From NCBI GenBank assembly GCA_963707385.1, contig CAVPPK010000002.1, positions 354,673 to 418,672 on the forward strand: a stretch of 64,000 nt of DNA, in the 5' to 3' direction. Below the pieces are notes generated by a model. That model searched no databases and was not told the DNA's origin. It was given only the letters and a program-made list of their open reading frames with translations. Made by a program: the position numbers and the translations under genes. Origin of the DNA: an uncultured bacterium (GTDB lineage Bacteria; Actinomycetota; Actinomycetes; S36-B12). Within the stretch, counting starts at the first letter, position 1. Every line of letters starts with the position of its first letter. Of this stretch, positions 5,919-42,983 are shown in pieces.

Positions 5919-5940
5919 TCTCCCGCGCTGCCACCTTGGC

Positions 5941-5996
5941 GAGTGCGTAGTTGTGGCCCGTTTCGGGCCGGCCACAGCGGCCACAACTACGCACTC
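5941..5996. terminator. Bidirectional stem-loop between convergent genes
   Basis: Perfect 18-bp inverted repeat GAGTGCGTAGTTGTGGCC (5941-5958) / GGCCACAACTACGCACTC (5979-5996). It lies between the phosphatase (+) and SDR (-) stops. Confidence 0.7.
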
Positions 5997-6030
5997 GGAG
6001 CAGCATGCGGCTACGCCAGGGCGACTGCAG

Positions 6031-6784
6031 CTAGGAGATCGTCTCCCCGCCGTCGACGAGGAGGGTCTGGCCGGTGATGAACGAGGCGTCGTCGCTGAGG
6101 AAGAAGCAGATGGCGGCGGCGAGCTCCTCGAGCGGTGCCCATCCGCTTCATGGGGATGGCCTGCCCGAAGATCTCCTCCCCCTTCTCCATGTCGCCACCC
6201 CGGGCGAGCATGAGGGGGGTCGTCATACCCGTGATGGTGCGGCCCGGGGCGACGCAGTTGATCCGCACCTCCGGCAGGGCCTCGAGCGCGAACTGCCGGG
6301 TGATGCCGGTGATGGCCGCCTTCGCGGCGCCGTACGGCACGTTGTTGTTGTTCGCCATGAAGGCCGCGGTCGACGCGATCGTGACGATCGAGCCCTTGCC
6401 ACGAGCCTTCATCACGGGGGTGGCGTACTTGCAGACGTTGAACGTCCCGCCGACGTGGACCTCCATCATCTTGTTGAAGCGGGCCGAGTCCCACTCCGCC
6501 AGGGGGCCGAACTCCGCATGGCCCGCCGCAGCCAGCACGAGGTCGATGCCGCCGAGCTGCTCGACGGTGGCGTCGACGGCCGCCTTGACCTGCGCCTCGT
6601 CCGCGACGTTGGCGCCCAGGCCGATGCAGCCGCCACCGATCTCCGCCGCGACGTCCTGTGCCTTGGACAGGTCCAGGTCGACGAGCGCAGCGCGCCCACC
6701 CTCAGCGACGACCCTCTCGGCGGTGGCACGACCGATGCCGCTGGCGCCGCCGGTGACGAACAGGACGGTGTTGTCGAAGCGCAT
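6031..6784 (-). CDS. SDR family oxidoreductase; one frame interruption near 6140
   Basis: MRFDNTVLFVTGGASGIGRATA, IASTAAF...YGAAKAAI, INCVAPG. The C-terminus reads ...ICFFLSDDASFITGQTLLVDGGETIS after a frame change, with a stop at 6031-6033. Confidence 0.8.
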
Positions 6785-6832: not shown

Positions 6833-7358
6833 TCAGTGGCCCGCGGAGGGGGAGTCGCTCGGGCGTGCGCCCTCCGACGCCTTCCACATCTTGGCGCTGT
6901 CGAAGCCGATGCGGGTGACGGGGACCAGCTCCAGGACGACCCGGTCCGGGGAGTCGAGCATCGTGCGGAACGCCTCGGCCTTCTCGGGCTCGCCGGGGCG
7001 CATGGCGTTGGCGAACTCCGGGAGCACCCAGTCGAGCGTCTCCCGATCACGGTGGACGACCGCGGTGCACTTGTAGGTGATGGAGCGGCGCTCCTTCACG
7101 GACGAGCCCTTCGACGTGACCGCGATGCTCACGCGCGGGTCCTTGCGGATCGACGCGATCCGGGGGCGCTCCTCGCTGGCGGTCAGCCAGAAGCGACCGT
7201 CGCGGTAGATGAAGTTGACGATCACGCCCATCGGCCAGCCCTCCTTGCCGGCCCAGATGAGGGTGCACTCGGTCTGGGCGTCCAGGAGCTCCAGCTCGTC
7301 CTGCGGAATCGAGGGTGTAGGACGTCACGTCCTCCCAGTTCTTCGCCTGATCGGCCAT
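6833..7358 (-). CDS. Pyridoxamine 5'-phosphate oxidase-family (FMN/F420-binding split barrel) protein; one frame interruption near 7300
   Basis: N-terminus MADQAKNWEDVTSYTLDS (AAGGAG RBS upstream of ATG 7358) joins MGVIVNFIYRDGRFWLTASEERPRIASIRKDPRVSIAVTS... (ORF 6833-7231). Confidence 0.7.
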
Positions 7359-7442
7359 GGGGCTCCTTCGGGAGGTGGATCGTGGGCATCGGATTGTAGG
7401 AAATCCTTGCAATAACTGTAGTGACTGTCTAGTTTCTCTGTC
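7359..7442. promoter_or_regulatory. Divergent promoter region with composite box; candidate leaderless start for 7443
   Basis: TAGGAAATCCTTGCAA (7397-7412), CTGTAGTGAC (7416-7425), TGTCTAG (7426-7432). The -10-like TAGTTT (7430-7435) ends 7 nt before ATG 7443 and there is no SD sequence. Confidence 0.5.
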
Positions 7443-7895
7443 ATGCCTTTGACACTCGAGCAGATCACGGACCGGATCGAGATCGACGAGCTCCTCGCCC
7501 GCTACTCGCGGGCCCTGGACTTCCGGCACTTCGACGAGCTGGAAGGGATCTTCACTCCCGACGCCGAGTTCGACGCAGGAGGTCTCGGCCATCCGCACGG
7601 TCCGGCCGCCATCCGGGCGATGATCGAGGGGACGATCGGCGGCCTCGACGCCACCCAGCACCTCGTGGGCAAGAGCATCATCGAGTTCGGCGAGGACGGG
7701 AACTCGGCCGAGGTGCGCACCTACCTGATCTCCCAGCACATCCGGGAGTCGGCGCCCGGGCCCGTCAAGCACTACTTCCTCGGCGGGGAGTACTTCGATC
7801 GCGTCGTCCGGACCGCCGACGGCTGGCGGATCGCCTTCCGTCGCCTCGACCGGATGTGGAAGCAGGGCGACCGGGCCGTCATCTCGGCCACCTAG
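7443..7895 (+). CDS. NTF2/SnoaL-like (SnoaL_4) protein, intact
   Basis: 150-aa single-frame ORF. ITDRIEIDELLARYSRALDFRHFDELEGIFTPDAEFD...HLVGKSIIEF... is typical of the NTF2-like family. Confidence 0.85.
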   Translation: MPLTLEQITDRIEIDELLARYSRALDFRHFDELEGIFTPDAEFDAGGLGHPHGPAAIRAMIEGTIGGLDATQHLVGKSIIEFGEDGNSAEVRTYLISQHIRESAPGPVKHYFLGGEYFDRVVRTADGWRIAFRRLDRMWKQGDRAVISAT

Positions 7896-7942
7896 GCGCT
7901 ACCGTCCTCCCGCACCCCACCGAACTACTGCAGCACGCCCAG

Positions 7943-9711
7943 ATGAGGAGCACCATGGACACCTGGATCGCCGACACCGAGCCGAGCGAGCGCTTCCCGA
8001 TCTACACCCGCGCCAACGCCGACGAGGTCGGCCCCGACCCGTTCACGCCGCTGAACTGGACCCTCACCTGGGAGCAGGGGATCGTGCCCGGGAACGGCCG
8101 ACGCGTGGATCGCGCTCGGGACGTTCGAGCCGGACGAGTTCCTCTGGACCAAGCCGGAGACCTACGGCTCCTGGGGCGGCTACTTCTACAACCAGGTGTC
8201 CCTCGGCCGGGTGTTCGGCTACCGCATGCCGGGGGCGACGCCCGACGCCATCGACATCTCGTTCTTCGGCCAGAACCCCACGGTGCCCGCCGTACGTCCA
8301 CGATCCGCGCGACGACAACGAGGCGTGCTCGGCGAAGCTGGGCGAGTCCTTCGGCGCGATCCTCGGCGGGCGCTCAGGAGGCGCTCTCCGCCGACTACCT
8401 GGCGCAGGCAGCCGCAGTGGCGGGCCAGCCGGCCGGACCTCGCGGCCGATCACCGACGCCGAGCTCGTCGAGTACGGCCGCACCTCGGCGCGGTGGCAGC
8501 GCCCGGGCTGGGACGCCTACGCCCAGGTCGTCATCGGCGCCACCGTCGGTCCGCAGATCGTGCAGGGGATCGCCGAGGCCGTCGGCAAGCCGGAGCTGGC
8601 CATCCAGATCTTCGGGGCACTCGGCGACGTCGCCTCGGCGGGCATGTCCGGAGCGGGTCTGGGACCTGTCGCGCCTGGTCCGCGACTCGCGCGGAGCTGA
8701 CCGCGGCCTTCGATGCCGGCGTCGAGGGTCTCGGCCGACCGGCTCGCGCGCCGAGCCCGGCAGCGGCGGAGTTCAACGCCGCGTTCGCCGACCTGCTCGA
8801 GACGTTCGGGCATCGCGGCGTCAACGAGTGGGAGATCAGCGCCGACACCTGGCTGATCAACCCCACGCTGGCGTACCAGATGATCGACCGCGTGCGCCGG
8901 CAGGACGACGCGAACGTCGCCGACGCTGCGTGCCGCCGAGTCGGCCACAGCGCCGGGAGGCCGCCGTGGCGGAGCTCACCGCCGCGGTCGCGGGCGACGA
9001 GGCCACCGCCGGCCTGCTGGCCGCCGGCATCGCCGTCCGGCCAGTCGTCCTACCGGCTGCGCGAGGCGGGCAAGAACGCCACGGTCATGCTCATGCAGGA
9101 GCCCAAGCTCGCGTTCCGCGAGCTCGGCCGCCGGATGCACGAGCGCGGCCACCTCGTCGACCCGATGCACGTGTTCCAGCTGCTCGAGAGCGAGCTGGAC
9201 GGCGTTCCTCGCGGATCCGGCGTCCTTCACCGACACCCTCGCCTCGCGGCACGCCGCAGTGGCTCACCCTCGCCGAGCTCGAGCCGCCGTACCTCGTCAT
9301 CCGCGACCGGCCGATCCCGCCGATCAGCGAGTGGCCGAAGCGCCGCCGGTACGTCCGAGGGCGAGGCGGCCGCCGTCGGGCACCGAGATGAAGGGCATCC
9401 CCGGCTCGCAGGGCACCGTCACCGCTCGCACCCGGGTCATCCTCGACCTGGCCGACGCCGACTCCCTCGAGCCCGGCGAGATCCTCGTCTGCACCACGAC
9501 GGACCCGTCGTGGGTGCCGCTGTTCATGATCGCCAGCGCGGTCATCTGCGAGATCGGCGCGCAGGCAAGCCACGCGGTGATCGTCAGCCGCGAGCTCGGC
9601 GTCCCGTGCGTCGTCTCGCTGGCCGGCGCGAGCAGCATCGCTGCCCGACCGGGCACCCTGGTCGAGCTCGACGGATCGACGGGCGCCGTCACGGGTCGTC
9701 GAGACGGCGTG
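7943..9711 (+). CDS. PEP-utilizer 'mobile domain' (swivelling phospho-His) protein, paralogue 1, no ATP-grasp; at least 8 frame interruptions
   Basis: N-terminus MDTWIADTEPSERFPIYTRANADEVGPDPFTPLNW matches paralogues 2 and 3. C-terminus GIPGSQGTVTARTRVILD...EPGEILVCTTTDPSWVPLFMIASAVICEIGAQASHAVIVSRELGVPCVV. Probable end ...VVETA with TGA at 9709-9711. Confidence 0.75.
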
Positions 9712-10427
9712 ACGGTCAAGCCACCGCCCACGCCGCCCGAGCCGCCCTTCTCCGTCCGGTACCCCTTCCTCCTCCTCGAGGAGGAAGGGGTCACCCGGCT
9801 GACGATCGTGCGGCACGCGCAGCAGGACTATCCGACGGACGACGAGTTCGACCACGCGGCCTGGGCCGACCCGCCGCTGAGCGGCCTGGGTCGCACCCAG
9901 GCGATGGCGCTGTCGGCCGTGCTCGGCGAGCAGGACGTCGACGTCGTCGCCTGCAGCACGATGCGCCGCGCCATCGAGACGGCGGAGATCGTCGCCTCGC
10001 CGCATGGCGCTGACGCCCGTCGTCCGGCCCGAGCTGGTGGAGATCCAGTCCTACCGCGACCTCGAGGAGGGCGTCGATCCGCAGACCCTCGTCGACCCGG
10101 CGGAGTGGGCCGCGCGCGAGCAGGCGTTCTACCGGCAGGCTGATGTGGGACCACATGTTCTTCAGCGAGGGCTCTGCCGAGTTCCGTGCGCGTGCCGTCG
10201 GCGCTGTCGACCGCCTCGTGGCCGACTACTCCGGGCAGCACATCGTGCTGGTGAGCCACGGTGGCGTGATCAACGCGGTCATCGGCGCCATCCTCGGGAT
10301 CGAGGAGGACATGTTCTTCCTGCCGAACCACTGCTCGATCAGCTCGGTGTGGATCAAGGGCGACGTGCGCCGGGTGCACTCCGTCAACGAGCGCCAGCAC
10401 CTGCACGTCGGCATCCTCACGAACTGA
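9708..10427 (+). CDS. Histidine phosphatase family protein (1 of 3); frame interrupted near 10000 and 10140
   Basis: GTG overlaps the upstream stop (GTGA). RLTIVRHAQQDYP (RHA variant of the RHG motif), PPLSGLGRTQA, LVSHGGVINAVIG. Pieces lie in ORFs 9259-10143, 10004-10495 and 10143-10427. Confidence 0.7.
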
Positions 10428-10433
10428 CCACGA

Positions 10434-11213
10434 TCAGGGGAGCAGGCCGATCTCGCGGGCGCGAACGACCGCCGCCTCGCGGTCGCGCACGTTGAGGAAG
10501 CTCATCAGGCGCATGAGGTCCTTCTTGACGGTGGACTCGGAGTACTGCAGCGCCTCCCCGATCTCGCGCGCCGAGCGGCCCTGGGCCACCAGCTCGAGGA
10601 TGCGGACCTGACGATCGGTGATGCGCACGTGCGGGCTCGGCTCGGGCAGCGGATGCCGGGCGCGGGAGTGCTCCGAGACCTGATGCATGTAGAGCCAGAG
10701 CGCAAGCGCCGCCGCGGTGCCCCGCAGCTGCCGGTCCTCGGCAGTCGTCAGCTCGGCGCGGGGAGGGGTGTGCACGCACAGCACCCCGATGGGCAGCCCC
10801 TTGACCGCCAGCGGCACGGTGATGATGAACGGCGGCTCGCCGGCCGGGGTGCGGATGGCCTCCTGGAGGATGCGACGCTCCTCGTCGGCGAACCAGCCGC
10901 CGGAGGTCGCGCCGGACCGCATGATGATCCGGTTCTCCCGGAAGGTGCGGCACGTGGTGAGCGGCGCCGCGACGGAGATCGAGCTGTACTTCTGCCACGT
11001 GACGTCGGGCATGCCGAAGGCGCCGATCAGGGCCAGCTCCTCCGGAACGGGTGCCTGGTAGACGGCGGATGCGGTGGCCGCCAGCGCGCGTAGCGGCCCG
11101 TGCACGACGGCCAGCGCGACGTCGTCGCCGCTCGGGTTGGCGCACAGGAACGACAGGAACGCGGCGGCGCCGTCGGAGAACTGGCCCTCGACCCCTGGCT
11201 GCTCGTCCGGCAC
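10434..11213 (-). CDS. LuxR-family transcriptional regulator with an N-terminal GAF-like sensor domain, intact
   Basis: 259-aa ORF. C-terminal HTH ITDRQVRILELVAQGRSAREIGEALQYSESTVKKDLMRLMSFLNVRDREAAV. Confidence 0.85.
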   Translation of the reverse strand: MPDEQPGVEGQFSDGAAAFLSFLCANPSGDDVALAVVHGPLRALAATASAVYQAPVPEELALIGAFGMPDVTWQKYSSISVAAPLTTCRTFRENRIIMRSGATSGGWFADEERRILQEAIRTPAGEPPFIITVPLAVKGLPIGVLCVHTPPRAELTTAEDRQLRGTAAALALWLYMHQVSEHSRARHPLPEPSPHVRITDRQVRILELVAQGRSAREIGEALQYSESTVKKDLMRLMSFLNVRDREAAVVRAREIGLLP

Positions 11214-11302
11214 GCCACGAACCTAGCCGAACGCCGGGTATGACCGTTCATGAACTGCGCGGGCCGTGGCGACGGACCGTCCAACCTCCCTACCGTTGGG
11301 GC
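11214..11302. promoter_or_regulatory. Divergent LuxR / Rieske-1 control region
   Basis: Perfect 10-bp palindrome GTTCATGAAC (11246-11255) and GGACCGTCC (11274-11282), the latter related to the island-wide GGACGTCC core. Confidence 0.4.
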
Positions 11303-12511
11303 ATGACCGACACCGTTCCCCAGTACCGCGCCGGCGCGCACACCGCGATGAGCCGCGAGGAGGCCCTCTCGATCCTCGACCGACTGGTGGGCCATCTGCG
11401 CAACGGCACGACCGACATGGCGCCCGAGCAGATGGAGATCCCGATCTCCTACTACCTCGACCAGGAGCTGTGGGAGCGCGAGATCAAGGAGATCTTCCAC
11501 GCCATCCCGCTGCCGGTCGGCACGTCGGCGGAGCTCGCCGGCGTCGGCGACTACAAGACGATGCGGGTGGTGGGCAAGGAGATCATCCTCGTGCGCGGCA
11601 AGGACGGGCGCATGAACGCGATGCTCAACGTCTGTCGTCACCGGGCGATGAAGCTGCTTCCCGACGGCTGCGGGAGCTCGCGCCGCTTCACCTGCTCGTA
11701 CCACGCCTGGACGTACGACACCGATGGCAGGCTGACCGGCGTCCCCGGCGAGGACACCTTCGGCGACGTCGACAAGGACGACTACAGCCTCGTTCGGCTG
11801 CCGTGCGAGGAGCGCGCCGGCTTCATCTTCGTCGGACTGACCCCCGGGATGGACCTCGGGATCGACGCCTGGCTCGGCGACGTGGCGCCGTACCTCGAGG
11901 CCCTCGAGCTCGACAAGTGCACGCACTTCACGACGAAGACGCTGCCCGGGCCCAACTGGAAGGTCACGCTCGACGGCTACCTCGAGGGCTACCACTTCAG
12001 CGCGCTGCACCCGAACACGGTGGCGCTGACCAACCACACCAACCGCATGACCTTCGACCGCTTCGGCCCGCACGTCCGCAACGTGTTCGCCCTGAAGACC
12101 CTCGACGCGATGATGGAGACGCCCCGCGAGGAGTGGGATCCGGCTGCGGCCATGGGGCTCGTGTACTGGATCTTCCCGGGCATGTCGATCGCCGGCGGCT
12201 GGCGCGAGCGCACGGTCGTCTCGATCATCCTGCCGGGCGACTCGTGGGGGGAGTCGATGACGTGGCAGACGACGCTTCTGCGCACGCCGCCGCAGACCCC
12301 GGAGGAGCTGCTCGAGGCGGAGAAGACGGCCGAGTGGTTCTTCGCGGCCTTCCGCGACGAGGACTACACGGCCCAGGCCGACGTCCAGAACGGGCTCGCC
12401 TCGCTGGCGGACAAGCACATGATCATCGGACGCAACGAGATCGCCGTCCAGCACGCCCACGAGACGGCGCGGCGGCTGCTGGCGGGGGAGCCCGTCCACG
12501 GCCCTCGGTAG
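11303..12511 (+). CDS. Rieske [2Fe-2S] non-heme-iron oxygenase alpha subunit (alpha-only type), paralogue 1, intact
   Basis: CRHRAMKLLPDGCGSSRRFTCSYHAW (CxH...CxxH), iron site NWKVTLDGYLEGYHFSALHPNT. 402 aa in one frame from ATG 11303. No beta-subunit gene follows. Confidence 0.9.
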   Translation: MTDTVPQYRAGAHTAMSREEALSILDRLVGHLRNGTTDMAPEQMEIPISYYLDQELWEREIKEIFHAIPLPVGTSAELAGVGDYKTMRVVGKEIILVRGKDGRMNAMLNVCRHRAMKLLPDGCGSSRRFTCSYHAWTYDTDGRLTGVPGEDTFGDVDKDDYSLVRLPCEERAGFIFVGLTPGMDLGIDAWLGDVAPYLEALELDKCTHFTTKTLPGPNWKVTLDGYLEGYHFSALHPNTVALTNHTNRMTFDRFGPHVRNVFALKTLDAMMETPREEWDPAAAMGLVYWIFPGMSIAGGWRERTVVSIILPGDSWGESMTWQTTLLRTPPQTPEELLEAEKTAEWFFAAFRDEDYTAQADVQNGLASLADKHMIIGRNEIAVQHAHETARRLLAGEPVHGPR

Positions 12512-12611
12512 GCGTTAGTGGTGGCCATCTCCACAAACTGAGTGGTCATCCCCCCGACGGGGATGGCAGACTCTCGGGCGTCCTGCCCCCCATCACTGAA
12601 TGGACGTCCAC

Positions 12612-14329
12612 ATGTCAGAGAAGGCCTGGCTCACCGACACCGAGCCCAGCGCGAAGTTCCCCGTCTTCACCCGGCTCAACGCCGCAGACGTCATGGCCGA
12701 CCCGATCACGCCGCTGGGCGCATCCATGTGCTGGATCCCCAACGTGCTGCCCGGCTGGGCCTCCGGCTACGTCGAGGACGTCTGCTTCACGGCCGACGAG
12801 CTCACCGACGAGTCCGCGGTGGCCGGGTTCTTCTACGGCTACCTGTACGTCAACCAGAGCTCGGTGCGCGTCCTGGGCATCCGCAAGGGCATGACCGCGG
12901 AGATCATCGACTCCATCTTCTTCAACTCCCCGGGTGCGCCGCCGCACGTCGCGTCCCCGAGCGACCAGAACGAGGCGCTGTCGGCGCTCGGCGCCGCGCG
13001 CGCCGGCTGGGTGCTGAGCACCTCGAAGTTCGAGGGCGCCGACGAGGACGCGGCCATCGCGGACGACCTGCGCCGCAACCGTCCCAACCTGAGGGCCATG
13101 AGCAACCGCGCCCTCGTCGCGCGCGCTCGCTCCGTGATGCCCTACGAGCGGCTCGCCTGGCGCTCGGAGCAGATCGGCTCCTCGAACGCCGCCGTCGGCC
13201 CGGCCGTCGCCGGCCAGATGCTCGGCGCCGAGAAGGCGCACCTGCTCGTGACGATCCTCGGCTACGCGGGCGACGTCGAGTCCGCCGCACCGACCTATGC
13301 GCTGTGGTCGCTGTCCCGCACGGTCAAGGGCAGCCCGGAGATGACGGCGCTGTTCGACAGCGGCGTCGACAACGTCGTCGCGCAGCTGCCCACCGCGACC
13401 GGCGGCTTCTGGAGCGAGTTCGCCGCGTTCATCGCGGAGTTCGGCTACCGCGGCCCGTCGGAGTGGGACCTCGGCACCGAGTCCTGGGAGTCCAAGCCGT
13501 CGCTCGCGCTGGCGCTCATCGACAAGATGCGCCAGCTCGACGACTCCGAGTCGCCGTCGGCCAAGCAGGCCTCGCACGCGGCGGCCACCGACAAGGCGAT
13601 GCTCGAGGCGACCGAGGGCATGGACGCGGCCACCGAGGCCATGTTCCGTGGCGCCATCGGCTCGGCCCGTCGCTTCGCCGGCTGGCGCGAGAGCGGCAAG
13701 TCGTCGTGCATCAAGGTCATGAACGAGGCCCGCATGGCGCTGATCGAGCTGGGCAGCCGGCTCGAGGCCCAGGGCGTGCTGGACCACTCGCGACAGATCT
13801 TCATCGCGCTCGACAGCGAGCTGGACGCCCTCGCCCTCGGCGAGACCACGCTGCTGCCGACGATCCGCCAGCGCGAGACGGACTGGAACGCCCTGAAGGA
13901 CCTCGAGGTCCCGACCTTCCTCGACGGCTCCAAGCCGATCCCGCCGATCTCCGACGTGCCCCGCAAGGGCGCGTCCAGCGCGGAGCGGGCGACGGTGGGT
14001 GCCGTGTTCAACGGTGCCGCTGCCTCGCAGGGCGTCGTCGAGGGTCGCGCGCGCGTCGTGCTCGGCACCGACGCGATCGGCGAGTTCGAGCCGGGCGAGA
14101 TCCTCGTCGCCCCGCAGACCGACCCGTCCTGGACGCCGCTGTTCATGGTCGCCGTCGGCGGTCGTCGTCAACACCGGCTCGATGGGCTCGCACGCGATGA
14201 TCGTCGCCCGCGAGCTCGGCATCCCGTGCGTCGCCGGCCTGCCCGGCGCGACGCACGATGTTCAAGTCCGGCGACCTGCTCCGGGTCGACGGCGCCAAGG
14301 GCACCATCGAGGTGCTCGAGACCGTCTAG
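12612..14329 (+). CDS. PEP-utilizer mobile-domain (swivelling phospho-His) protein, paralogue 2, no ATP-grasp; frame interrupted near 14160 and 14260
   Basis: MSEKAWLTDTEPSAKFPVFTRLNAADV... runs in one frame for ~1550 nt. C-terminus EPGEILVAPQTDPSWTPLFMVA..GSMGSHAMIVARELGIPCVAG...LLRVDGAKGTIEVLETV with TAG at 14327-14329. Confidence 0.85.
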
Positions 14330-17783: not shown

Positions 17784-17991
17784 GCGGTCCCCTCGAGCGG
17801 ACGGGCGCCTCGGCGCCGGGTGTCGGATCGCCGCAGGAAGGCGGCGATTCCGGATGCTAGCGGCGGAGATGGGGCCGGGGGTCGGGTTTCTTTAGCCTTC
17901 CTCTATAAATAGGTCCCGAGTTCTGCGATAGTAGGACTTCCTAGTGACTGGCCTGCCGCTCCGGCGGCGGCCCCGGGGTGCGGAGGATCGG
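17784..17991. promoter_or_regulatory. Divergent AT-rich control region (ADH operon / PPDK-like operon)
   Basis: TATAAAT (17904-17910). Box TAGTAGGACTTCCTAGTGAC (17929-17948) has inverted arms TAGGA..TCCTA. GGAGGA RBS precedes ATG 17992. Confidence 0.5.
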
Positions 17992-18607
17992 ATGACGGAC
18001 GTGGTCTTGGCGGACGGGGAGCGCGACGCCCTCGTGACCATGGTGGTGCGCGGCATGGCCCGCGGCGAGGTCTCGCCCGAGCAGCAGGCTCTTGCCGACG
18101 CCGGCCTGATCCTGATCAAGGGCCCGATGATGATGCCCACGCCGGCCGGCACCGCGCTGGTGGCCGAGCAGCTGCGACTGCCCGACGACGCGCCGGAGCG
18201 CGAGCGCATCATGGCCACGTTCCACCGCTTCCTCCCGGTCAACCGTCAGCTGCGCGACCTGTGCACCGCGTGGCAGGTGCGCCCCGACGGCAGCGTGAAC
18301 GATCACGCGGACGAGAACTACGACGCCGACATCCGCGACCGGCTCGACGACATCGACGACTCGGTCGCGCCGCTGCTCAAGCGGTTCGCGGAGGACATCC
18401 CGCGGATGGCCGGCTATCGCGCGAAGCTCACCGAGGCGCTGGCGAAGCTCGACGACGGTGACGACGCGTGGCTGGCGTCGCCCGCTGATCGACTCGTACC
18501 ACACGGTGTGGATGCACCTGCACCAGGAACTGCTCCTCACCATCGGCATGTCCCGCAAGGAGGACGAGGAGCTCGAGGAGCGCCTCGTGTCGGGTGGGGC
18601 CGCGTGA
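17992..18607 (+). CDS. Hypothetical protein (about 200 aa) immediately upstream of the PPDK-like gene; one frame interruption near 18480
   Basis: MTDVVLADGERDALVTMVVRGMARGEVSPEQQALADAGLILIKG...RFLPVNRQLRDLCTAWQVRPDG..., then LIDSYHTVWMHLHQELLLTIGMSRKEDEELEERLVSGGAA with TGA at 18605-18607. I recognise no family. Confidence 0.5.
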
Positions 18608-18659
18608 GGACGCGAGGAGTGAGCGGAGCGAGCCCCGGAGCGGCCCAGCAGGTGAACGC

Positions 18660-21238
18660 GTGAGCCCTGCGTCCTGGACGCAGCCGGTCGACGACGTCGG
18701 CCTCGTCCCGTTCGGCAGCGGCATCGAGCGAGGGCTCGACGAGCGGTCGCTGTGCACGCGCGGCATCCAGCTGGAGACCCTCGCGGGCCTCGGGCTGCCG
18801 GTCGGTGCCGGCCTGACGATCCCGGTGCCCAACGTGCCCGGGCTTCACCTCGCCCGACCGGGCCAAGGCCGCGATGAACCTGCTGGAGAGCATCTCCGGG
18901 CGGCAGATCAGCGGCACCACCGAGAACGGCGGCCTGGTCCTGCTGCGGCTGAGCGCGAGCGCACCCGTCGATGCCGCCGGGCCTCCCGCCGGACCTCGTC
19001 TGCCTCGGCCTCAAGCGCAGCGTCATCCCGGAGGGCCTGGGCGCCAAGGCGCGCGGCGACCTGGGCAACGCGTGGTGGAAGACGGCGGCCTTCATCGCCG
19101 AGCATGCCCTGGGCGTGCCGGTCGAGGACCTCGGCTCCCTCGACATCGACTACCCGGATCCGGTCGAGCGGGTCGAGCCCTTCAAGCTGCTGTGCGCGGA
19201 GAAGGGCACCGCGCCGTTCCCCACCAAGCGGTCGGAGCAGGTCGCAGCCGGCGCCAAGGCCATGATCGAGCGCTGGAACTCGCCCCGTGCCGCTCGGGCC
19301 CGCCGGAAGCAGAACCTGCCGCCCGACCTCCCGCTGGCCCTGCACCTCGAGACGGTCGTCGTCACCGAGCACGACGACGAGGGTCACGGCTTCGCGGTGT
19401 CGCGCGACATGGAGTCGGGCCAGTTCGCGCCCAACGGCGCGTTCCGGCACGGCTTCCGCTGGAGCGGTGAACGCCAGCAGACCGGCCATCCGCTCGGCGA
19501 GCTGCCGGACGGCGTCGAGATGCTCACCGGTGTCCTCGCCGAGCTCGAGGGCCGGCTGCGCAGCGCGGTGATCGTCGACTTCGAGTACGGCCCGGACGGC
19601 CTCGCGCTGGTGGGGCTCGAGCAGATGCGCCGGCCCAACGCCCGCGTCGCCACCAGCCTGGCCGTCGACCTCGCCATCCGCGGCATCACCGACGAGGCCG
19701 AGGCCGTGCGCCGCACGGCCCCCACTCATGTGCTCGAGCTGCTGCACCCGCAGCCGAAGCTGACCGGCGCCGAGGTGCCGCTGGTCGCCGGGCCTCGGCG
19801 CGTCGCCCGGCGCCGCCGTCGGCCGCATCGCGCTGACCAGCGAGACCGCCGTCGAGATGACCGAGGCGGGCGAGTCGGTCCTGCTCGTCATGAGCGAGAC
19901 GACCCCCGGCGACCTGCCCGGCATGATGGCCGCGACGGGCATCCTCACGGTCAACGGCGGCTCCGCGTCGCACGCCGCGGTGGTGGCGCGCGGCATGGGA
20001 CGGCCGGCGATCTGCGGAGCCGGCGGCCTGCGCATCGACCACGAGGCCGGCACGATCACCGCGGGGGAGCACGTCCTGCACGGCGGGGACGTCATCTCGA
20101 TCGACGGGGCCACCGGGATCGCCTACGTGGGCGAGCTCGACGATCGAGCGTCCCAGCCCCTCGCCGAGCCTGACGACGCTGCTCGGCTGGGCGGACGACT
20201 CCCGTCGCCTGGGCGTGCGCGCGAACGCCGACAACGGTGCCGACGCGGCCGCCGCGATGGACAACGGCGCCGAGGGAATCGGCCTGTGCCGCACCGAGCA
20301 CCAGTTCATGGGCGACCGGCTGCCGCTGGTGCGCCGGGTGATCCTGTCGCACGACTTCGACGCGGAGGAGGCGGCGCTCGCCGCGCTCGCCGACGCCCAG
20401 CGCGAGGACTTCCGCGACCTGCTGCGTGCGGTCGGCGACCGGCCCGTGACGGTGCGGCTGCTCGATGCGCCGATGCACGAGTTCCTGCCGGCGAGCGAGG
20501 CCGATGCCGAGGACGAGCACCAGGCGCGGATGCTCGAGCACCTGCACGAGGAGAACCCCATGCTCGGCGTGCGCGGAGTGCGCCTCGCGCTCATGCACGA
20601 GGGCCTCTACCCCGCTCAGGTCGAGGGACTGTTCAACGCGTGGGTCGACGTCGTCTCGGCCGACGAGGCCCGGCCCGAGCTCGAGGTGATGGTCCCGCTG
20701 GTGTCCATCCCCGAGGAGCTCGTGATGATGCTCCGGCTCATCCGCCGCGTGAACCAGGAGGTCTCGTCGCGGACCGGGATGATCATCCCCTTCAAGATCG
20801 GCACGATGGTCGAGACGCCGCGCGCGGCTCTGCTCGCTGACCGGCTGGCGCAGTGGGCGGAGTTCCTGTCGTTCGGCACGAACGACCTCACCCAGCTGAC
20901 CTACGGCTTCTCCCGCGACGACGTCGAGCGCCGCATGCTGGGCACCTACCTGGAGAAGGGGCTCATGACGGCGAGCCCGTTCGCCGAGCTCGACGACGAC
21001 GGCGTCGCGACGCTGATGGCGTACGCGGTGGACAAGGCGCGCGAGGTGCGGCCGGACATCAAGCTCGGCATCTGCGGCGAGCACGGCGGGGATCCGTCGT
21101 CCATCGCCATCTGCGAGCGGCTCGGCCTCGACTACGTGTCCTGCTCGCCGACCCGCGATCCCGGTCGCCCGACTGGCGGCCGCGCACGCCGTCGTCGGCT
21201 CGCCTGCGTCACCGGCCTTGGCTGGTACCGGATCGTGA
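18660..21238 (+). CDS. Pyruvate,phosphate dikinase-like enzyme (ATP-grasp-like N-domain, swivel His domain, PEP/pyruvate TIM barrel); about 5 frame interruptions; start uncertain (18594 or 18660)
   Basis: GLGASPGAAVGRIALTSE...TPGDLPGMMAATGILTVNGGSASHAAVVARGMGRPAICG; NADNGADAAAAMDNGAEGIGLCRTEHQF; MVETPRAAL...FLSFGTNDLTQLTYGFSRDD; KLGICGEHGGDPSSI. The N-terminal region is divergent (see findings). Confidence 0.8.
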
Positions 21239-21311
21239 CCGGAAAATACTTGGAAGACCTTGCATCTCGGGTTTTCGCCTGTAGTGTTCGAGCGATCGTG
21301 AGGGAGGCCCG
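21239..21311. promoter_or_regulatory. Internal promoter/operator upstream of the ABC transporter genes
   Basis: ACTTGGAAGACCTTGCAT (21248-21265) and CTGTAGTG (21279-21286). Both sub-motifs recur at 7397-7425. GGGAGG RBS precedes ATG 21312. Confidence 0.45.
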
Positions 21312-22849
21312 ATGACGACCGCGCTGAGTGTGCGCAATGCCACGAAGATCTTCGGGGCGCAGGTCGCGCTCGACAACGTCAGCATCGACGTCGAGCCGGG
21401 CGAGGTCCGTGCGCTCGTGGGCCAGAACGGCTGCGGCAAGTCCACCCTGATCAAGATCCTCGCAGGATTCCACGAGCCGGAGCCCGGCACCGAGGCCATC
21501 GGTCGGCGGCGAGACCCTGCCGTTCGCGAATCCGGTCGCCAGCGAGGCCGTCGGCCTGCGCTTCGTGCACCAGGACCTCGGCCTGGTCGGCAACCTCGAC
21601 GCCGTCGACAACCTGGCCATGGGCCAGGGCTACATCACCAACGCCGACCAAGACGATCCGTGGCGCAAGGAGCGCGCGCACGGCCCGCGAGGCGCTGGCG
21701 GCACTCGGCTACGACATCGACGTGAAGGTGCCGGTCGCTGGCCTGCAGATGTCGGAGCGCACGGCTGTCGCCATCGCTCGCGCGATGTCCGAGCGCGGCA
21801 GCCGCCGCAAGATGCTGATCCTCGACGAGCCGACGGCCAACCTCCCCGGCGCCGAGGCGCAGCGCCTCTACCAGCTCGTCCGTCGCGTGGCCGACTCCGG
21901 CGTCGCCGTGCTGTTCGTCTCGCATCACTTCGACGAGGTCTTCGAGATGGCCGAGTCCGTGACGGTGCTGCGCGACGGCAAGCTGATCACCGACGCGGCC
22001 CGGTCGCGGGACTCACCGAGGAGGAGCTGATCGAGCTCGTCGTCGGCCGCAAGCTCGAGGAGCACGACAAGCGCGACGCCGAGGCCCGCGAGCACGGGTG
22101 GAGATCCTCACGCTCAGCGAACGTGTGGGGCTCGCAACGTGCGGGCATGGACCTCACCGTGCATCGCGGCGAGGTCGTCGGGCGTGGCCGGCATCACCGG
22201 CTCCGGACGCGAGGAGGTGGCATCGCTGGTCTTCGGCGGCCACGAGCGCGGTCCGGCGAGATCACCGTCGACGGCAAGGTCCTGCCGCAGAACCGGCCCG
22301 ACATCTCCATCGAGCGGGGCGTCGCCCTGGTGCCGGCCGAGCGCCACGCGAACGCGTCGCTGCTCGACCAGACCCTGCGCGAGAACATCACCCTCGTCGA
22401 TCCGGGTCGGCACATGACGATGGGGATCCTGCGCCGCCGCCCGGAGACGCGCCGACGTGCGCGTGTGGCTCGACCGGCTGACGGTCAAGCCCGGTGGGCA
22501 GACCGAGTACACGATGACGCAGCTGTCCGGCGGCAACCAGCAGAAGGTCATCCTCGCCCGCTGGCTGCGTCAGGAGCCGGAGGTGCTCATCCTCGACGAG
22601 CCGACGCAGGGCGTCGACGTCGGCGCCAAGGCGGACATCCACACGCTCGTCGACGAGGCCGCCGCCCAGGGCGCCGCGGTGCTCGTCTGCTCGACCGACC
22701 ACGAGGAGCTGGTCCGCGTCTGCGACCGCGTGGTGATCATGCGACGAGGTCGCGCGGTCGAGATCCTGCGCGGCGACGAGATCACCGCCGACAACATCAC
22801 CGCCGCCACGATCGGCCGCGAGCACGGGTCGGCCGAACCCGCGGCCTGA
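21312..22849 (+). CDS. Sugar-type ABC transporter ATP-binding protein with two NBDs (RbsA/XylG-like); about 6 frame interruptions
   Basis: Walker [10 protein letters not shown], Walker [12 protein letters not shown], second [12 protein letters not shown], signature [24 protein letters not shown]. Ends at 22849. Confidence 0.85.
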
Positions 22850-22902
22850 CCGCCCACTGACCACCACTGCCCAGCGCCTCGACGAGAACCGGAGCACACC
22901 CG

Positions 22903-23959
22903 ATGACCCGGAGCCGAACCCTGTCTGAAGTGCAAGCAGCGACGCCCACGCGCCGGATCAACCTCGGCTTCGACAAGTACAGCGGCCTGTACGTCTGGGC
23001 GCTGCTCGTCATCGTCTTCTCGCTGTGGATTCCGGACCTGTTCCTGCAGGTGAGCAACTTCAAGCACGATGCTGCTCCTTCCAGGCCATCAGCACGATCG
23101 TGGCCCTCGGCCTGATCCTCCCCGTGGCCGCCGGCGCCTTCGACCTGACGATCGCCGGCACCCTCACGGTGTCGGCGTGCTTCACGGCGTGGGCGCTGAC
23201 CAACCACAACGGCGTGATCGTCGCGGCCGGTGCGCTCCTGCTGATCGGCGTCGTCATCGGCCTGGCGAACTCGATGGTCGTGGTCAAGTTCAAGGTCGAC
23301 TCGTTCATCGGCACCCTGGGCATGAGCTCGCATCCTCGTCGCGGTGGCCTACATGATCACCGACAGCGCGCAGATCGTGCTCAGCACGGAGGCGGGCTAC
23401 GCACCCGTTCTTCGAGTTCGCACGCGAGGAGTCGTTCGGCACTGCCGCGGTCCGTGTACTACGCGGCGGTGATCGCGGCCATCGTGATCTGGTGGATCCT
23501 CGAGTACACCCCGGGTGGCCGCTACCTCTACGCCGTCGGCGGCAACCCGGTGGCCTCGCGCCTCGCGGGCGTGCAGGTCGGGCGCGATCATCACGCTCGT
23601 CCTTCATCTCCTCGGCGGTGACGTCGGCCTTCGCCGGCATCGTGTACCTGTCCACGATCGCCAACGGCGACCCCCGACATCGGCAGCGGACTACCTGCTG
23701 CCGGCCTTCTCGGCGGTGTTCCTCGGCGCCACGCAGATCCGGCCGGGTCGCGTCAACGTCCTCGGCACGCTCGTCGCGATCTTCCTGCTCGCCACCGGCG
23801 TCACGGGCCTGCAGCTGGCCGGTGCGCCCTCGTACGTGACCGAGCTGTTCAACGGCGTCGGCGCTGATCGTCGCGGTGGCGCTGGCCGCGCGCACGGCAC
23901 GCGCCGCGCCGCCGCGGCTGACGCGCAGCGCACCGCGCGCACTCGGCGTCGGTGTCTAG
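22903..23959 (+). CDS. Sugar-type ABC transporter permease (ribose/xylose family); about 6 frame interruptions
   Basis: Hydrophobic segments YVWALLVIVFSLWIP, STIVALGLILPVAAGAFDLTIAGTLTVSA, LLPAFSAVFLGATQIRPGRVNVLGTLVAIFLLATGVTGLQLAG. The end is approximate. Confidence 0.7.
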
Positions 23960-24809: not shown

Positions 24810-24901
24810 GGAGTCTCCCGATGCGATTTACTTGGACGTCCTAGTTACTATAGTCTGCGTTCGATAAGTGCAGGTGCATTCCACCGATCCGGGAGACCCT
24901 G
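24810..24901. promoter_or_regulatory. Divergent control region (ThuA-2 / E1alpha operon) with the best copy of the island box
   Basis: TTTACTTGGACGTCCTAGTTACTATAGT (24827-24854). It contains the perfect palindromes GGACGTCC and ACTATAGT. The region is bracketed by gtctcccgat / atccgggagac. Confidence 0.55.
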
Positions 24902-28335: not shown

Positions 28336-28981
28336 ATGCCGGCCATCTACCTGCTGAGGCATGGCCAGGCGAGCTTCGGTACGGACGACTACGACGTCCT
28401 GTCCGACCTCGGCCGGCGCCAGGCAGCGGTCGCGGGCGCGGCGCTCGCACGACGTGGCCTGCGGCGGCCCGTGGTTGTCAGCGGAGGGCTGAGGCGGCAG
28501 CGGGACACGGCCGCGATAGCGGCTGAAGCGCTGGGCGTGCAGCCCTCCGGTGTGGACGCGCGTTTCGACGAGTTCGACGCACATGCCGCGGTCGACGCCC
28601 ACCTTGGTGGTCCTGGCGCCACGGACGGGATGTCGTCGACCGACTTCCAGCGTGCACCTCGACGTCGTGATGGCGACGTGGATGGACTCGGGCGAGGAGC
28701 GGTGGCGGGCCTTCACTGACGGCGCCGTGGCCGCCCTGGCCGATCTCGCCGCGTCGCTGCCGTCAGGGTCGGATGCGGTGGTGGCCACATCGGCGGGCGT
28801 CACGGCGGTGATCGCCGGACGGCTGCTGGGAGCCGACTCCGCGGGCGTCATCGCGATGAACCGGGTGAGCGTCAATGCGTCGATCACGACGGTGGTGGCC
28901 GGGGCACGGGGGCTGTCGCTGGTGTCCTTCAACGACCACGCCCACCTGCTGGACGACCGGTCGCTGCTCACCAACCGCTGA
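28336..28981 (+). CDS. Histidine phosphatase family protein (2 of 3); one frame interruption near 28650
   Basis: MPAIYLLRHGQASFGTDDYDVLSDLGRRQA (RHG motif). The C-terminal half VVATSAGVTAVIAGRLLG...SFNDHAHL lies in ORF 28550-28981. Confidence 0.8.
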
Positions 28982-31401: not shown

Positions 31402-32405
31402 CGCAGACGACCGCCGTCCTCCTCGACCGCCGACCCGTGGGCACCGCGGTCGCGGCGGCGCTGACGCTCGGGACGATCGACCTGCCCGCGCTCGCGCCGG
31501 GGCAGGCCCTCGTCCGCAACCAGTACATGAGCGTGGACCCGTCAACGCGCGGCCGCATGGATCCGGGTGAGAAGCAGTACACGACCAACTTCGAGATCGG
31601 CGGCCCCCTCGACGGGTCCGCGATCGGCGTCGTCGTCGAGTCCGCCTCCGACAGGCTTCCGGTCGGTGCGACGGTGCGGCACCGACTCGGCTGGCGCGAG
31701 CTCGCCGTCGTCGACGACGCGACCGCCACCGTCTGCGACCTCGCGAAGGCGCCGGCCGTCTCCTGGCTGAGCTCGATGGGCCAGACGGGTTTCACTGCCT
31801 ACGCAGGCCTGCTGCCCGTGGGACGGATCGCGAAGGGCGAGACCGTGTTCGTCACCGGCGCGGGCGGTGCCGTGGGCAGCATGGCCGGCCAGTTCGCGCG
31901 CCTGCTCGGTGCGGGTCGCGTCATCGGCAGCGCGGGCGGTGCGGAGAAGTGCGCGTGGCTGCTGGACGAGTGCGGCTTCGACCACGTCATCGACTACCGC
32001 AACGGCGACGTTCGCGCGGAGCTCCCGGTCGCGGCGCCCGACGGCATCGACCTGTTCTTCGACAACGTGGGCGGCTGGCAGATGGTGGCCGCGTTCCACA
32101 ACATGAAGATCCACGGACGCATCAGCATGTGCGGCGCTGTGTCGAACTTCGGCACCGCCGATCAGCCCTCGCTCAATGAGCTGATCGAGGTCGTGCTGCG
32201 GCGCATCACCATCCAGGGCTTCATCGTGCGCGACTACGAGGCGTTGCGCCCGGAGTTCGAGGAGCGCGTGAGCGGCTGGCTGGCGAGTGGTGAGCTGGTC
32301 GACCGCGCGACGATCTACGAGGGCATCGAGAACGCGGGGGCGGGGCTCGAGGGCCTGCTGAACGGCGCGAACCTCGGCAAGGCCCTGATCCGGCTGTCGG
32401 ACTGA
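31398..32405 (+). CDS. NADP-dependent oxidoreductase (MDR superfamily, leukotriene-B4-dehydrogenase/YncB-like), intact
   Basis: ALVRNQYMSVDPSTRGRM, TVFVTGAGGAVGSMAGQFARLLGA, GIDLFFDNVGG, C-terminus LNGANLGKALIRLS. Confidence 0.85.
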   Translation: MTQTTAVLLDRRPVGTAVAAALTLGTIDLPALAPGQALVRNQYMSVDPSTRGRMDPGEKQYTTNFEIGGPLDGSAIGVVVESASDRLPVGATVRHRLGWRELAVVDDATATVCDLAKAPAVSWLSSMGQTGFTAYAGLLPVGRIAKGETVFVTGAGGAVGSMAGQFARLLGAGRVIGSAGGAEKCAWLLDECGFDHVIDYRNGDVRAELPVAAPDGIDLFFDNVGGWQMVAAFHNMKIHGRISMCGAVSNFGTADQPSLNELIEVVLRRITIQGFIVRDYEALRPEFEERVSGWLASGELVDRATIYEGIENAGAGLEGLLNGANLGKALIRLSD

Positions 32406-32415
32406 GGGAGACCGC

Positions 32416-32809
32416 ATGGCCATCGACGTCGTCGACGCGACACTGTTCGCATCGCTGGAACCCGTCGCGCTGCGCGGGTCCTCATGCGGCAGATGCGGCG
32501 CGCACGTGTTCCCGGCGATGGGCTCATGCCCGATGTGCTCCGGGACCGATGTGACTGACGTGGCCCTGCCCACCGCGGGCACGGTCTGGTCATGGACGAC
32601 GCAGCACTTCGCGCCCAAGCCGCCCTTCCGCACCGACGAGTTCGCGCCGTTCAGCATCGGCTACGTCGATCTGGGTCCGGTGATCGTCGAGGGCTGGCTG
32701 GTGGGCCGCACCCACTGGACCATCGGCGAGCCGGTCCGTCTGGTGCTCACCAAGGCGTGGACCGACGGTGACACAGGTCGTGCACACCTTCGGCTTCGAG
32801 GCGGCGTCA
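32416..32809 (+). CDS. DUF35 OB-fold/zinc-ribbon protein (thiolase partner); one frame interruption near 32775
   Basis: Zn ribbon CGRCGAHVFPAMGSCPMCSG, then GTVWSWTTQHF...SIGYVDLGPVIVEGWL. The restored C-terminus VVHTFGFEAAS stops at 32807-32809, overlapping the next ATG. Confidence 0.75.
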
Positions 32810-33980
32810 TGAGCGCGGGCACGGACGCGATCTACATCGTGGGCGCAGCCCGCACCGAGTTCGGGCGGTACGACGGCGAGGACAACGAGCTCGCCGAGCA
32901 GGCAGTGCGAGGCGCCCTTGCCGACTGCGGCCTGTCGTGGACCGACGTCCAGTTCGCCGTGGGCGGCACCAACGGCGAGACCAAGCCCGACAATCTGGTC
33001 TCGCGGCTGGGCCTCACCGGGCTGCCCTTCGTCACCGTGAAGAACGGCTGCGCGACGGGTGGGGTGGCCCTCATGACCGCGCGCAACGGCCTCATCGCGG
33101 AGGATCTCGACGTCGCCTGCGTCGTCGGGTACGACAACCACGCGCGCGGCGCGTTCAACGCCTCGCCGGCCCGCTACGGGATCGGCGAGTGGTACGGCGC
33201 CACGGGCATGATGGTGACGACGTCGTACTTCGCGCTGAAGATCCAGCGGTACCTGCACGAGCACGGGATCAGCGAGCGCACCCTCGGGTATGCGTCCGAG
33301 AAGGCCTTCGACTACGCCACCGCGCACCCGTACGCCTGGCGCCGCAAGCCGGTGTCGGTGGACGACGCGATGGACGCCGACATGATCAACGACCCGCTGA
33401 CGCGCTTCATGTTCTGCTCGCCCGACGCCGGTGCGGTCTCGCTCGTCCTCGCCCGCGGGCGCTCGCGCCTTCGACCTGTGCGACACACCGATCCGGCTGG
33501 CCTCGGTGGCGCTGCGCGGCCGCCGACCCGGCTCCTTCGAGGTCTTCTCGCCCTGGCTGGCGCCCGGCGAGCGCACCAGCCCGTCCATCGACGCGGCGGC
33601 GGCGGCCTTCGCGGCGGCGGGCATCGCGCCCGCGCGACGTCCAGGTGGCGCAGCTGCAGGACACCGACAGCGGCGCGGAGGTGATCCACCTCGGCGAGAC
33701 CGGCCTGGTCGCGCACGGCGAGCAGGAGGCCGCGTACCGCAACGGCGACTTCGCGATCGACGGCCGGCTTCCGGTCAACACCGACGGCGGGCTGCTCGCC
33801 AACGGCGAGCCGGTCGGCGCCTCGGGGCTGCGCCAGGTGCACGAGGTCGTCCGCCAGCTCCAGGGGCGTGCCGACGGCAAGCAGGTGCCGGGCGGCCCGC
33901 GCATCGGATTCACCCATGTCTACGGAGCCCCGGGCATCAGCGCCTGCACGGTTCTCATGAACGAAGGAGCGACCCCGTGA
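32806..33980 (+). CDS. Thiolase-fold lipid-transfer (SCP-x/Ltp-type) protein; 2 frame interruptions
   Basis: MSAGTDAIYIVGAARTEFGRY, FVTVKNGCATGGVAL, INDPLTRFMFCSPDAGAVSLVL, LPVNTDGGLLANGEPVGASGLRQVHEVVRQLQGRA. Confidence 0.8.
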
Positions 33981-42953: not shown

Positions 42954-42983
42954 CCCGCGTCACCACCCCGCCCTGGAGGAATC

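Follow-up and report, generated by a model that had tools for sequence, protein, structure and literature searches.

The Locus and the State of Its Sequence

In a stretch of 64,000 nucleotides from an uncultured actinobacterium of the S36-B12 lineage (contig CAVPPK010000002.1 of assembly GCA_963707385.1; the whole stretch is called the window below, and positions count from its first letter), a small gene stands upstream of a gene whose product resembles pyruvate, phosphate dikinase (PPDK), and three other genes encode Rph-like proteins that carry phosphohistidine domains of their own. Judged from comparative sequence data, the small upstream protein is probably not incidental but a conserved third component that would couple the PPDK-like protein, as a charger, to Rph-like kinases. 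The more specific reading, to which we give an even chance, is that the pair forms an Enzyme-I-like charger driven by phosphoenolpyruvate (PEP) that passes a phosphoryl group by way of the small protein to these kinases. The pair, its domains, and its motifs are as follows.

17992-18607, forward strand: small partner gene, 204 amino acids once a +1 insertion near 18484 is removed
18295-18327, forward strand: invariant motif NDHxDxxYD of the small protein
18491-18526, forward strand: invariant motif DSYHTVWMHLHQ of the small protein
18660-21238, forward strand: PPDK-like gene, whole, 857 amino acids after repair
18660-19756, forward strand: remodelled ATP-grasp N-domain, with CTRG for GGKG and GHGFAVSRD for the T-loop; insertions near 18836 and 18974
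18753-18764, forward strand: CTRG loop, replacing GGKG
19382-19408, forward strand: GHGFAVSRD, at the T-loop position
19784-20147, forward strand: phosphohistidine swivel domain (PF00391, E = 2.8e-19); insertions near 19793 and 20138
19956-20000, forward strand: swivel motif GGSASHAAVVARGMG, catalytic His codon at 19971-19973
20161-21238, forward strand: PEP/pyruvate-binding TIM-barrel domain (PF02896, E = 2.5e-68); insertion near 21157
20275-20307, forward strand: GIGLCRTEHQF, a PPDK-type motif
20872-20895, forward strand: FGTNDLTQ, a PPDK-type motif
21070-21090, forward strand: ICGEHGG, a PPDK-type motif

The G+C content of the window is about 70%, and each of its genes that was examined is broken across reading frames. 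The frames of the pair were repaired by alignment against the intact orthologue L004 (DNA identity 91%), relative to which there are six +1 insertions (near 18484, 18836, 18974, 19793, 20138, and 21157) that lie about 500 bp apart, none within a long homopolymer, and that leave the PPDK-like gene scattered over three frames; the same alignment gives a spacer of 56 bp between the two genes. After this repair the limits that an initial annotation of the DNA had set for the region (17992-21238) and for its upstream reading frame of about 200 amino acids (17992-18607) prove correct, and the peptide strings it quoted are all present in the three-frame translation of 17900-21400. That all indels are +1 and that the neighbours are split alike suggests a systematic fault in sequence quality, not a biological cause. 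A decaying pseudogene with six real frameshifts, for which the six +1 insertions per 3.2 kb and the uniformly split neighbouring genes might be claimed, is very improbable. Both genes have intact orthologues, to which the window proteins are 84-99% identical besides the indels, with no in-frame stop. The density of indels is alike in every gene of the window, which therefore speaks for sequence quality and not for selective decay. Likewise, the nearest database proteins, P0001 and P0003 from long-read metagenome assemblies, carry a frameshift of their own elsewhere, directly after AAVVARG, and because these frameshifts fall at other positions, those of the window are best regarded as artefacts of sequence quality.

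A Dikinase Scaffold Without Its ATP Site

In a Pfam scan to E<=10 the PPDK-like protein matches PF00391 and PF02896 only, PF01326 going undetected, and its TIGR01828 score of 655.6 stays under the cut-off of 843.45, with a matched span of residues 165-843 only. A full-length intact orthologue matches the PPDK of Clostridium symbiosum (1kbl/1dik) with E = 1e-147, and the N-domain alone matches the same enzyme in phmmer with E = 3e-11, the Arg of CTRG aligning with Lys22. Residues were surveyed in 48 family members, one genome per species, together with the C. symbiosum enzyme, whose numbering is used throughout, and a canonical actinobacterial PPDK from locus L078. The gene for the latter lies at 3502-6126 on the reverse strand, about 4 kb from a small homologue that lacks a PPDK-like partner, and its product served as canonical reference with the motifs GGKG, SMPGMMET, NAQGEDVV, DIEFT...LQTR, and GGKTSH.

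The outcome of this survey is sharply divided between the two halves of the protein. The GGxxSHAA swivel motif of the His455 type is present in the window as GGSASHAAVVARG (19956-20000) and its His is invariant in all 48 members, as are the equivalents of Arg561, Arg617, Glu745, Asn768, Asp769, and Cys831, so that all six ligands of PEP/pyruvate are in place. At the ATP site, the position of Lys22 is Arg or His in 48 of 48 members, Gly20-Gly21 is mostly lost, the T-loop FGNKGETSGTGV has turned into xH-DDEGHG or GPW-ERSGHG, NAQGEDVV is absent, the acidic pair and the equivalent of Asp321 are lost, position 335 (Gln) is Gly or Ser, position 337 (Arg) is mostly Glu, Gln, or Ala, and Thr453 is replaced by Ala throughout. 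Among the listed ATP-grasp ligands Glu323 is the sole survivor, mostly as Asp or Glu, and a SPRAxRARR segment is conserved across the family. The list of residues essential at this site reportedly goes back to work by Ye and colleagues in 2001. It is partly corroborated by PMC5507339, for Arg95 and Glu324, and by PMC13400623.

The initial annotation had seen CTRG in place of GGKG, and the replacement is real: intact orthologues retain an L-C/G-T-R/H-G loop, so that a sequencing error is ruled out and the degeneration of the loop is genuine. The N-domain evolves under purifying selection (dN/dS, the ratio of nonsynonymous to synonymous substitution rates, 0.08-0.29, like the other domains) and is 43-49% identical within the family, although its identity to canonical PPDK is 22% as against 50% for the C-domain. 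A homology search with the N-domain only returned 10 matches, all of them fragments from frameshifted assemblies, and the impression of a small family that it gave was wrong; full-length orthologues were reached through searches with the small protein instead. Scored in repaired frames against PPDK, the ATP site is thus degenerate family-wide and the PEP/His half intact. By these residues the large protein is a descendant of PPDK that has kept the PEP/His machinery and lost the ATP site. Since the equivalents of Lys22, Asp321, Gln335, and Arg337, the T-loop, and the acidic ligands are all lost, chemistry with ATP, AMP, and pyrophosphate (PPi) should no longer be possible.

The Small Partner Protein

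The repaired small protein is 97% identical to P0012/L004. It had been described as belonging to no recognisable family, and neither Pfam (scan to E<=10) nor NCBIfam supplies one; similarly, a profile of the family finds no relative among the sequences of the PDB. A word-index search yields 756 close relatives, and with a full HMMER search, run over 1.84 billion cluster representatives, the family grows to 1470 clusters. AlphaFold2 models the window protein confidently, with a predicted local distance difference test score (pLDDT) of 89.7, as a truncated winged helix (residues 8-61), in which a single helix separates strand 1 from the wing, and a bundle of five helices after it. In a Foldseek comparison of this model with the PDB the best match has E = 0.12 and none falls below 0.1. 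Across 133 representatives the near-invariant residues all lie within the helical bundle (F80, N84, W94, Q95, N103, D104, H105, D107, Y110, D111, R138, Y142, G156, S168, Y169, H170, W173, H177, and R188), and the winged helix is unconserved. Distant members have a fuller winged helix, among them P0207 with a weak match to HTH_27 (E = 6e-4).

Distribution, Fusions, and Three-Component Contexts

A scan of one genome per species found 76 loci with the small gene, all of them in Actinomycetota. Many belong to metagenome-assembled genomes from freshwater and soil (Nanopelagicales and others); cultured hosts are Actinomadura, Goekera, Nonomuraea, Frankia, and Streptomyces plumbiresistens, and Acidimicrobiia are distant ones. 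In about 58 of the 76 loci the small gene has the PPDK-like gene immediately on its 3' side, commonly with an overlap of 4 bp, and the degenerate loop is present in every one of these paired genes.

The small domain is further linked to swivel-His enzymes in six arrangements, three of them fusions and three split versions. A type (a) fusion consists of the small, His, and TIM-barrel domains and does without the N-domain (P0133, P0134); type (b) joins a canonical ATP-grasp domain, a His domain, and the small domain (P0148, P0207, P0212, P0256); type (c) joins an Rph-like domain, a His domain, and the small domain (P0156, P0209, P0213, P0267, P0282, P0329). Outside the window's own family, a charger with its own His domain adjoins an Rph- or PpsA-like His kinase in seven of seven contexts examined, each of which also has the small domain adjacent; they include the following.

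L089: an Rph-like-His gene overlaps a type (a) fusion by 4 bp
L087: 8 bp separate a type (b) fusion from the Rph-like-His gene upstream of it
L084 and L085: immediately 3' of a type (c) fusion lies the gene of an ATP-grasp-His protein whose ligands are canonical
L090 (Mycobacterium avium): an ATP-grasp-His gene overlaps a free 201-amino-acid family member (E = 2.4e-41), with two flanking Rph-like-His genes
L092 (Mycolicibacterium): Rph-like-His, PF23213, small, and ATP-grasp-His genes

The His-TIM part of the type (a) fusions is 48-58% identical to the window family (52-58% but for one pair), as against 38-43% for canonical PPDK, and because the window family is nearest to it, type (a) probably arose by loss of a degenerate N-domain. 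With that domain lost, the small domain would take the position of the N-station. The ATP-grasp enzymes score highly with NF004531 (M. avium L090 871.7, L085 680.3, P0256 679.4; cut-off 456), and since the small domain also partners such fully canonical enzymes, it is not merely rescuing a broken nucleotide site. What recurs is thus a unit of a charger loaded from ATP or PEP, the small domain, and an Rph/PpsA-like kinase with a second swivel His.

Two other features of these loci deserve attention. In the mycobacterial and Sporichthya systems, Rph-like-His genes repeatedly have as neighbour a gene for a PF23213/DUF7064-like protein of about 320-345 amino acids (L090 at 1383-2381 and 7027-7995, L092 at 7042-7989, L086 at 10360-11397). 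Neither the window nor any of the 76 small-protein loci has it, and it may belong to the ATP-driven version as a fourth component. Further, genes for IspH (LytB), DXS, and IspG (GcpE) directly follow the small-His-TIM fusion of L089 (5579-9425), with an esterase, a flavin monooxygenase, and SnoaL4 beyond; a kinase system beside genes of the methylerythritol phosphate pathway is an unusual pairing.

The Proposed Relay and Its Alternatives

The candidate acceptors and the phosphatases beside them were placed in the window as follows; paralogues A to C were located by tblastn with their L004 orthologues, and their domains were read from intact orthologues with Pfam.

7955-9693, forward strand: Rph-like His-carrier paralogue A, Rph_4th and swivel-His without ATP-grasp, frameshifted; His domain 9445-9690
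9709-10424, forward strand: His_Phos_1 gene, directly 3' of paralogue A
12600-14326, forward strand: Rph-like His-carrier paralogue B, 96% identical to its L004 orthologue; His domain 14155-14238
28336-28978, forward strand: second His_Phos_1 gene, the terminal gene of the E1/E2 operon
48851-50583, forward strand: Rph-like His-carrier paralogue C, 38-44% identical to A; His domain 50359-50565

Four sites of the window therefore encode His domains, one in the PPDK-like gene and three in the Rph-like genes, whose orthologues combine PF27448 with PF00391 and align with RPH, PigC, and RedH over the C-terminal halves of these proteins. The initial annotation had proposed the large protein as phosphoryl donor for the three paralogues, whether from PEP or from ATP, phosphate (Pi), and pyruvate, and had stated that the window contains no other ATP-grasp-like or PEP-binding module. 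The latter claim is borne out, as canonical ATP-grasp queries (tblastn, 64-kb window) match 19142-19771 alone and no second module of either kind lies within the 64 kb. The donor role is favoured by this position as sole charging module and by the recurrent Rph-like link in comparative genomics, but the route from ATP, Pi, and pyruvate is disfavoured because the equivalents of Lys22, Asp321, Gln335, and Arg337 and the T-loop are lost. By the residue pattern the donor is most likely PEP, and for want of another ATP-grasp or PEP module in the 64 kb the charger of the window could only be PEP-driven.

In the relay that we propose, the phosphoryl group of PEP would be taken up by the swivel His of the PPDK-like protein at the intact TIM-barrel site, with release of pyruvate, and the phosphorylated His domain would then serve the 204-amino-acid protein in place of AMP/PPi. 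The small protein would act as a phosphoryl carrier or a docking station, probably on the vestigial N-domain, from which the phosphoryl group would pass to the His domain of Rph-like A, B, or C and thence to a catabolic substrate; the adjacent histidine-phosphatase-family proteins might remove the phosphate later, akin to HpeD after HpeHI. Swivel-type His domains exchange phosphate via small carrier proteins in the phosphotransferase system (PTS) and in DhaM. Two His domains would need an intermediary here, for which the small domain is the only constant candidate. Of this scheme, the residue pattern, the purifying selection, the synteny, and the domain fusions are observed, and the direction of transfer, the small protein's chemical role, and the final acceptors are inferred. 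A broader proposition, that the small family defines a new phosphorelay built from PPDK parts, in which a charger loaded from PEP or, as in VadK (Rv1127c of M. tuberculosis), from ATP would phosphorylate or dock on a helical carrier domain that then loads Rph/PpsA-like kinases, is possible, and we advance it tentatively.

Several observations weigh against a relay of this kind. In about 13 long-flanked loci the pair occurs without an Rph-like gene within 8-10 kb, among them Streptomyces plumbiresistens (L073) and Frankia (L077), and 11 loci (L056-L061, L064, L065, L068-L070) have a small homologue and no swivel-His gene within 10 kb; because these loci lack the partners, the link to the three paralogues amounts to lineage-specific synteny joined to inference. 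The invariant cluster of the small protein (three His, two Asp, Asn, Tyr, and Trp) resembles a buried site for a metal or ligand more than the exposed His of a carrier, and by this resemblance a carrier is a weaker reading than a station. The AlphaFold2 model of the N-domain and His domain of P0001, made from a 10-row alignment, is unusable (pLDDT 38.5), and kinases of the phenylphosphate-synthase type manage without any such third protein. Finally, the M. avium homologue of the small protein bears the name of a MarR-family regulator at NCBI.

The last point leads to the reading in which the PPDK-like protein is a PEP-sensing His kinase and the small protein a winged-helix, MarR-like regulator or adaptor at which the phosphoryl group ends, on the models of PRD-containing regulators under the PTS and of VadK, proposed to tune the methylcitrate cycle. 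VadK has been described as a regulatory kinase (PMC13400623), the N-terminal subdomain of the small protein is winged-helix-like in its model, P0207 shows the weak HTH_27 match, and some family members lie in catabolic clusters without a nearby swivel-His gene. We consider this reading unlikely nonetheless. The small protein is acidic (isoelectric point 4.6 overall and 4.5 for the winged-helix part), no helix-turn-helix profile of Pfam matches that of the window to E<=10, and the winged helix is one helix short in the model and unconserved, the roughly 20 near-invariant polar and aromatic residues being held by the bundle instead. Three fusions to enzymes, always beside an Rph-like kinase, suit a catalytic partner better than a repressor, and the RNA-seq data of the VadK study are reported to show no transcriptional control of methylcitrate genes (PMC13400623). 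An improbable alternative of a different sort is that the PPDK-like protein is still a pyruvate/PEP dikinase, with a non-canonical donor (another nucleoside triphosphate, PPi, or polyphosphate) whose site the small protein supplies or modulates. Such an enzyme would account for an N-domain kept under purifying selection, for the positive charge at position 22, the mostly acidic position 323, and the conserved SPRAxRARR, and for the match of the whole protein to PPDK, but Asp321, Gln335, Arg337, the T-loop, and NAQGEDVV are all lost together, the small-His-TIM fusions do without the N-domain, and the same small domain partners fully canonical ATP-grasp enzymes. The PEP-driven charger accordingly remains the reading adopted below.

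The Upstream Region and the Surrounding Island

Two elements stand upstream of the small gene, and the second of them has relatives in other intergenic regions of the island.

17887-17909, forward strand: promoter-like motif TTTCTTTAG-N5-CTCTATAAA, conserved upstream of the small gene
17928-17943, forward strand: palindromic operator-like box ATAGTAGGACTTCCTA, conserved in close orthologues
24828-24847, 36539-36554, and 51019-51034: related boxes in intergenic regions of the island

The promoter-like motif is kept across 18 orthologous upstream regions in a phylogenetic footprint and has one exact copy in the window; a scan with the sigma-70 consensus did not call it at 17887-17909. The island box that the initial annotation saw upstream of the pair is probably the palindrome, whose consensus, about ATAGTWGGACKTCCWA, has five matches in the window against 0.25 expected. 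No exact 20-mer of the upstream region is repeated, and only the 16-nt palindrome recurs. The box is probably the operator of an island regulator, for example the GerE/LuxR-type gene at 10437-11213 or a TetR.

The island is collinear in close relatives of the window. Its first half runs SnoaL4, Rph-like A, His_Phos_1, GerE, Rieske, Rph-like B, and an old-yellow-enzyme-like gene, and its second half a zinc-type alcohol dehydrogenase, the small gene, the PPDK-like gene, a sugar-type ABC transporter, ThuA, E1/E2, and His_Phos_1. Distant loci share genes for acyl-CoA dehydrogenases, an Ltp-type thiolase with DUF35, crotonase, TetR, KstD-like, and Rieske proteins, and because of these shared genes (acyl-CoA dehydrogenase, thiolase, crotonase, KstD-like, Rieske) the setting appears to be a lipid- or steroid-like catabolic cluster. 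The window itself has a ChsH2-type zinc-ribbon/OB-fold and thiolase-like gene, an acyl-CoA dehydrogenase, and a thiolase (32389-33681, 33981-35229, 62482-63663), which together with the KstD-like and Rieske genes of its relatives suggests degradation of steroid- or terpenoid-like side chains as the setting of the kinase system.

The His_Phos_1 gene is coupled to the orthologue of paralogue A by a 4-bp overlap (L004, 1828-2544), and in NCBIfam the His_Phos_1 proteins come closest to the types of ribazole phosphatase and phosphomutase and not to SixA. With the PRK05865 'sugar epimerase family protein' model (NF004520) the Rph-like paralogues align over its C-terminal part, and this model we take to represent Rv2047c of M. 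tuberculosis; if it does, that species has an Rph-like-His protein without ATP-grasp as a possible downstream partner of VadK and Rv1126c. Elsewhere in the window, a gene of the Y_phosphatase3 family, tyrosine phosphatase-like (41991-42950, forward strand, E = 7e-53), is flanked on the left by a GntR/UTRA regulator (40811-41644, reverse strand) and on the right by an aldehyde dehydrogenase (42954-44441). Between 38000 and 40000 the G+C fraction falls to 0.65, with strongly negative GC skew and positive AT skew, and a periplasmic sugar-type binding protein (PF13407) is encoded at 38082-39233; it presumably binds solutes for the ABC transporter encoded at 21312-23900.

Implications

The central implication is that a PPDK scaffold has been re-used with a disabled ATP site and, in that site's place, a new domain as partner. 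If the relay exists as proposed, catabolic kinases that otherwise cleave ATP into AMP and Pi would draw their phosphoryl groups from PEP, at half the energy cost of substrate activation. Such a saving would be plausible in freshwater and soil Actinomycetota, in which the module is abundant, and Actinobacteria would then possess a PTS-like system for catabolic phosphorylation. More broadly, an unannotated family of 1470 representative clusters gains an identity through its recurrent partners, and the names 'pyruvate, phosphate dikinase' and 'MarR regulator', likely given to such genes, are probably both wrong. Known families cover all parts of the system except the small domain, and the arrangement itself is undescribed in the libraries searched. 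It combines a PPDK scaffold whose ATP site is dead with a new, obligatory domain as partner and, probably, with a supply of phosphoryl groups from PEP to Rph-like kinases. A literature search for a PEP-dependent variant or a degenerate PPDK paralogue gave nothing directly relevant beyond a passing remark that some mycobacteria have full-length PPDKs without critical motifs (PMC13400623), which may refer to the window family.

Comparison with Known Systems

With PPDK (EC 2.7.9.1; 1KBL/1DIK; TIGR01828) the large protein shares its descent, the order of three domains, the swivel His, and the full PEP/pyruvate site. The window family differs in that its ligands for ATP, Mg, and Pi are replaced, Thr453 has become Ala, its score lies below the TIGR01828 cut-off, and PF01326 is blind to it; further, canonical PPDK has no small partner protein, whereas the PPDK-like protein of the window is paired with one.

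VadK (Rv1127c, a truncated PPDK; NF004531/PRK05878) is likewise derived from PPDK, autophosphorylated on its swivel His, and a PPDK no longer. It has kept the canonical ATP-grasp and lost the PEP domain, the reverse of the window protein, and the window family accordingly reaches 135.7 bits with NF004531 against the cut-off of 456 and has the PEP domain. VadK autophosphorylates His422 with ATP and Mg and is needed for virulence (PMC13400623, EMBO Rep 2026); Rv1126c, its operonic partner, raises its solubility, co-purifies tightly with it, and is separated from it only by 2 M NaCl, and no phospho-acceptor has been identified (PMC13400623). In M. avium and Mycolicibacterium the VadK-type genes are translationally coupled to genes of the small family, next to Rph-like-His genes, and by analogy with these pairs the membership of Rv1126c in the small family is a lead. 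If the broader phosphorelay proposed above is real, Rv1126c would be the missing acceptor of this virulence kinase, with Rph-like His carriers downstream, and the pattern of fusions and synteny provides an acceptor hypothesis for VadK, in which the operonic small protein comes first and the Rph-like His proteins follow.

Enzyme I and HPr of the PTS, and likewise the DhaM relay, offer a functional analogy, in which the large protein would correspond to Enzyme I and the small one to HPr, as there too a PEP-binding TIM barrel and a swivel His supply a small partner and, through it, several substrate-specific proteins. The window system differs in lacking the HPr-binding helical subdomain (PF05524, for which Pfam gives no match) and the HPr fold, and its acceptors would be Rph/PpsA-like kinases and not EII sugar permeases.

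Closest to these acceptors are PpsABC, CreHI/HpeHI, and rifampin phosphotransferase, since the Rph-like paralogues share the architecture of PpsA and HpeH, a substrate-binding domain with a swivel His. PpsC is a CBS-domain protein and unrelated. The paralogues lie in catabolic clusters with phosphatases, as HpeHI does with HpeD, which acts after HpeHI in the catabolism of acetovanillone (PMC9618137). In the PpsABC/HpeHI type, however, the ATP-grasp subunit or domain is without its own His domain and ATP is cleaved into AMP and Pi, whereas the charger of the window has its own His domain, a likely donor in PEP, and an extra coupling protein.

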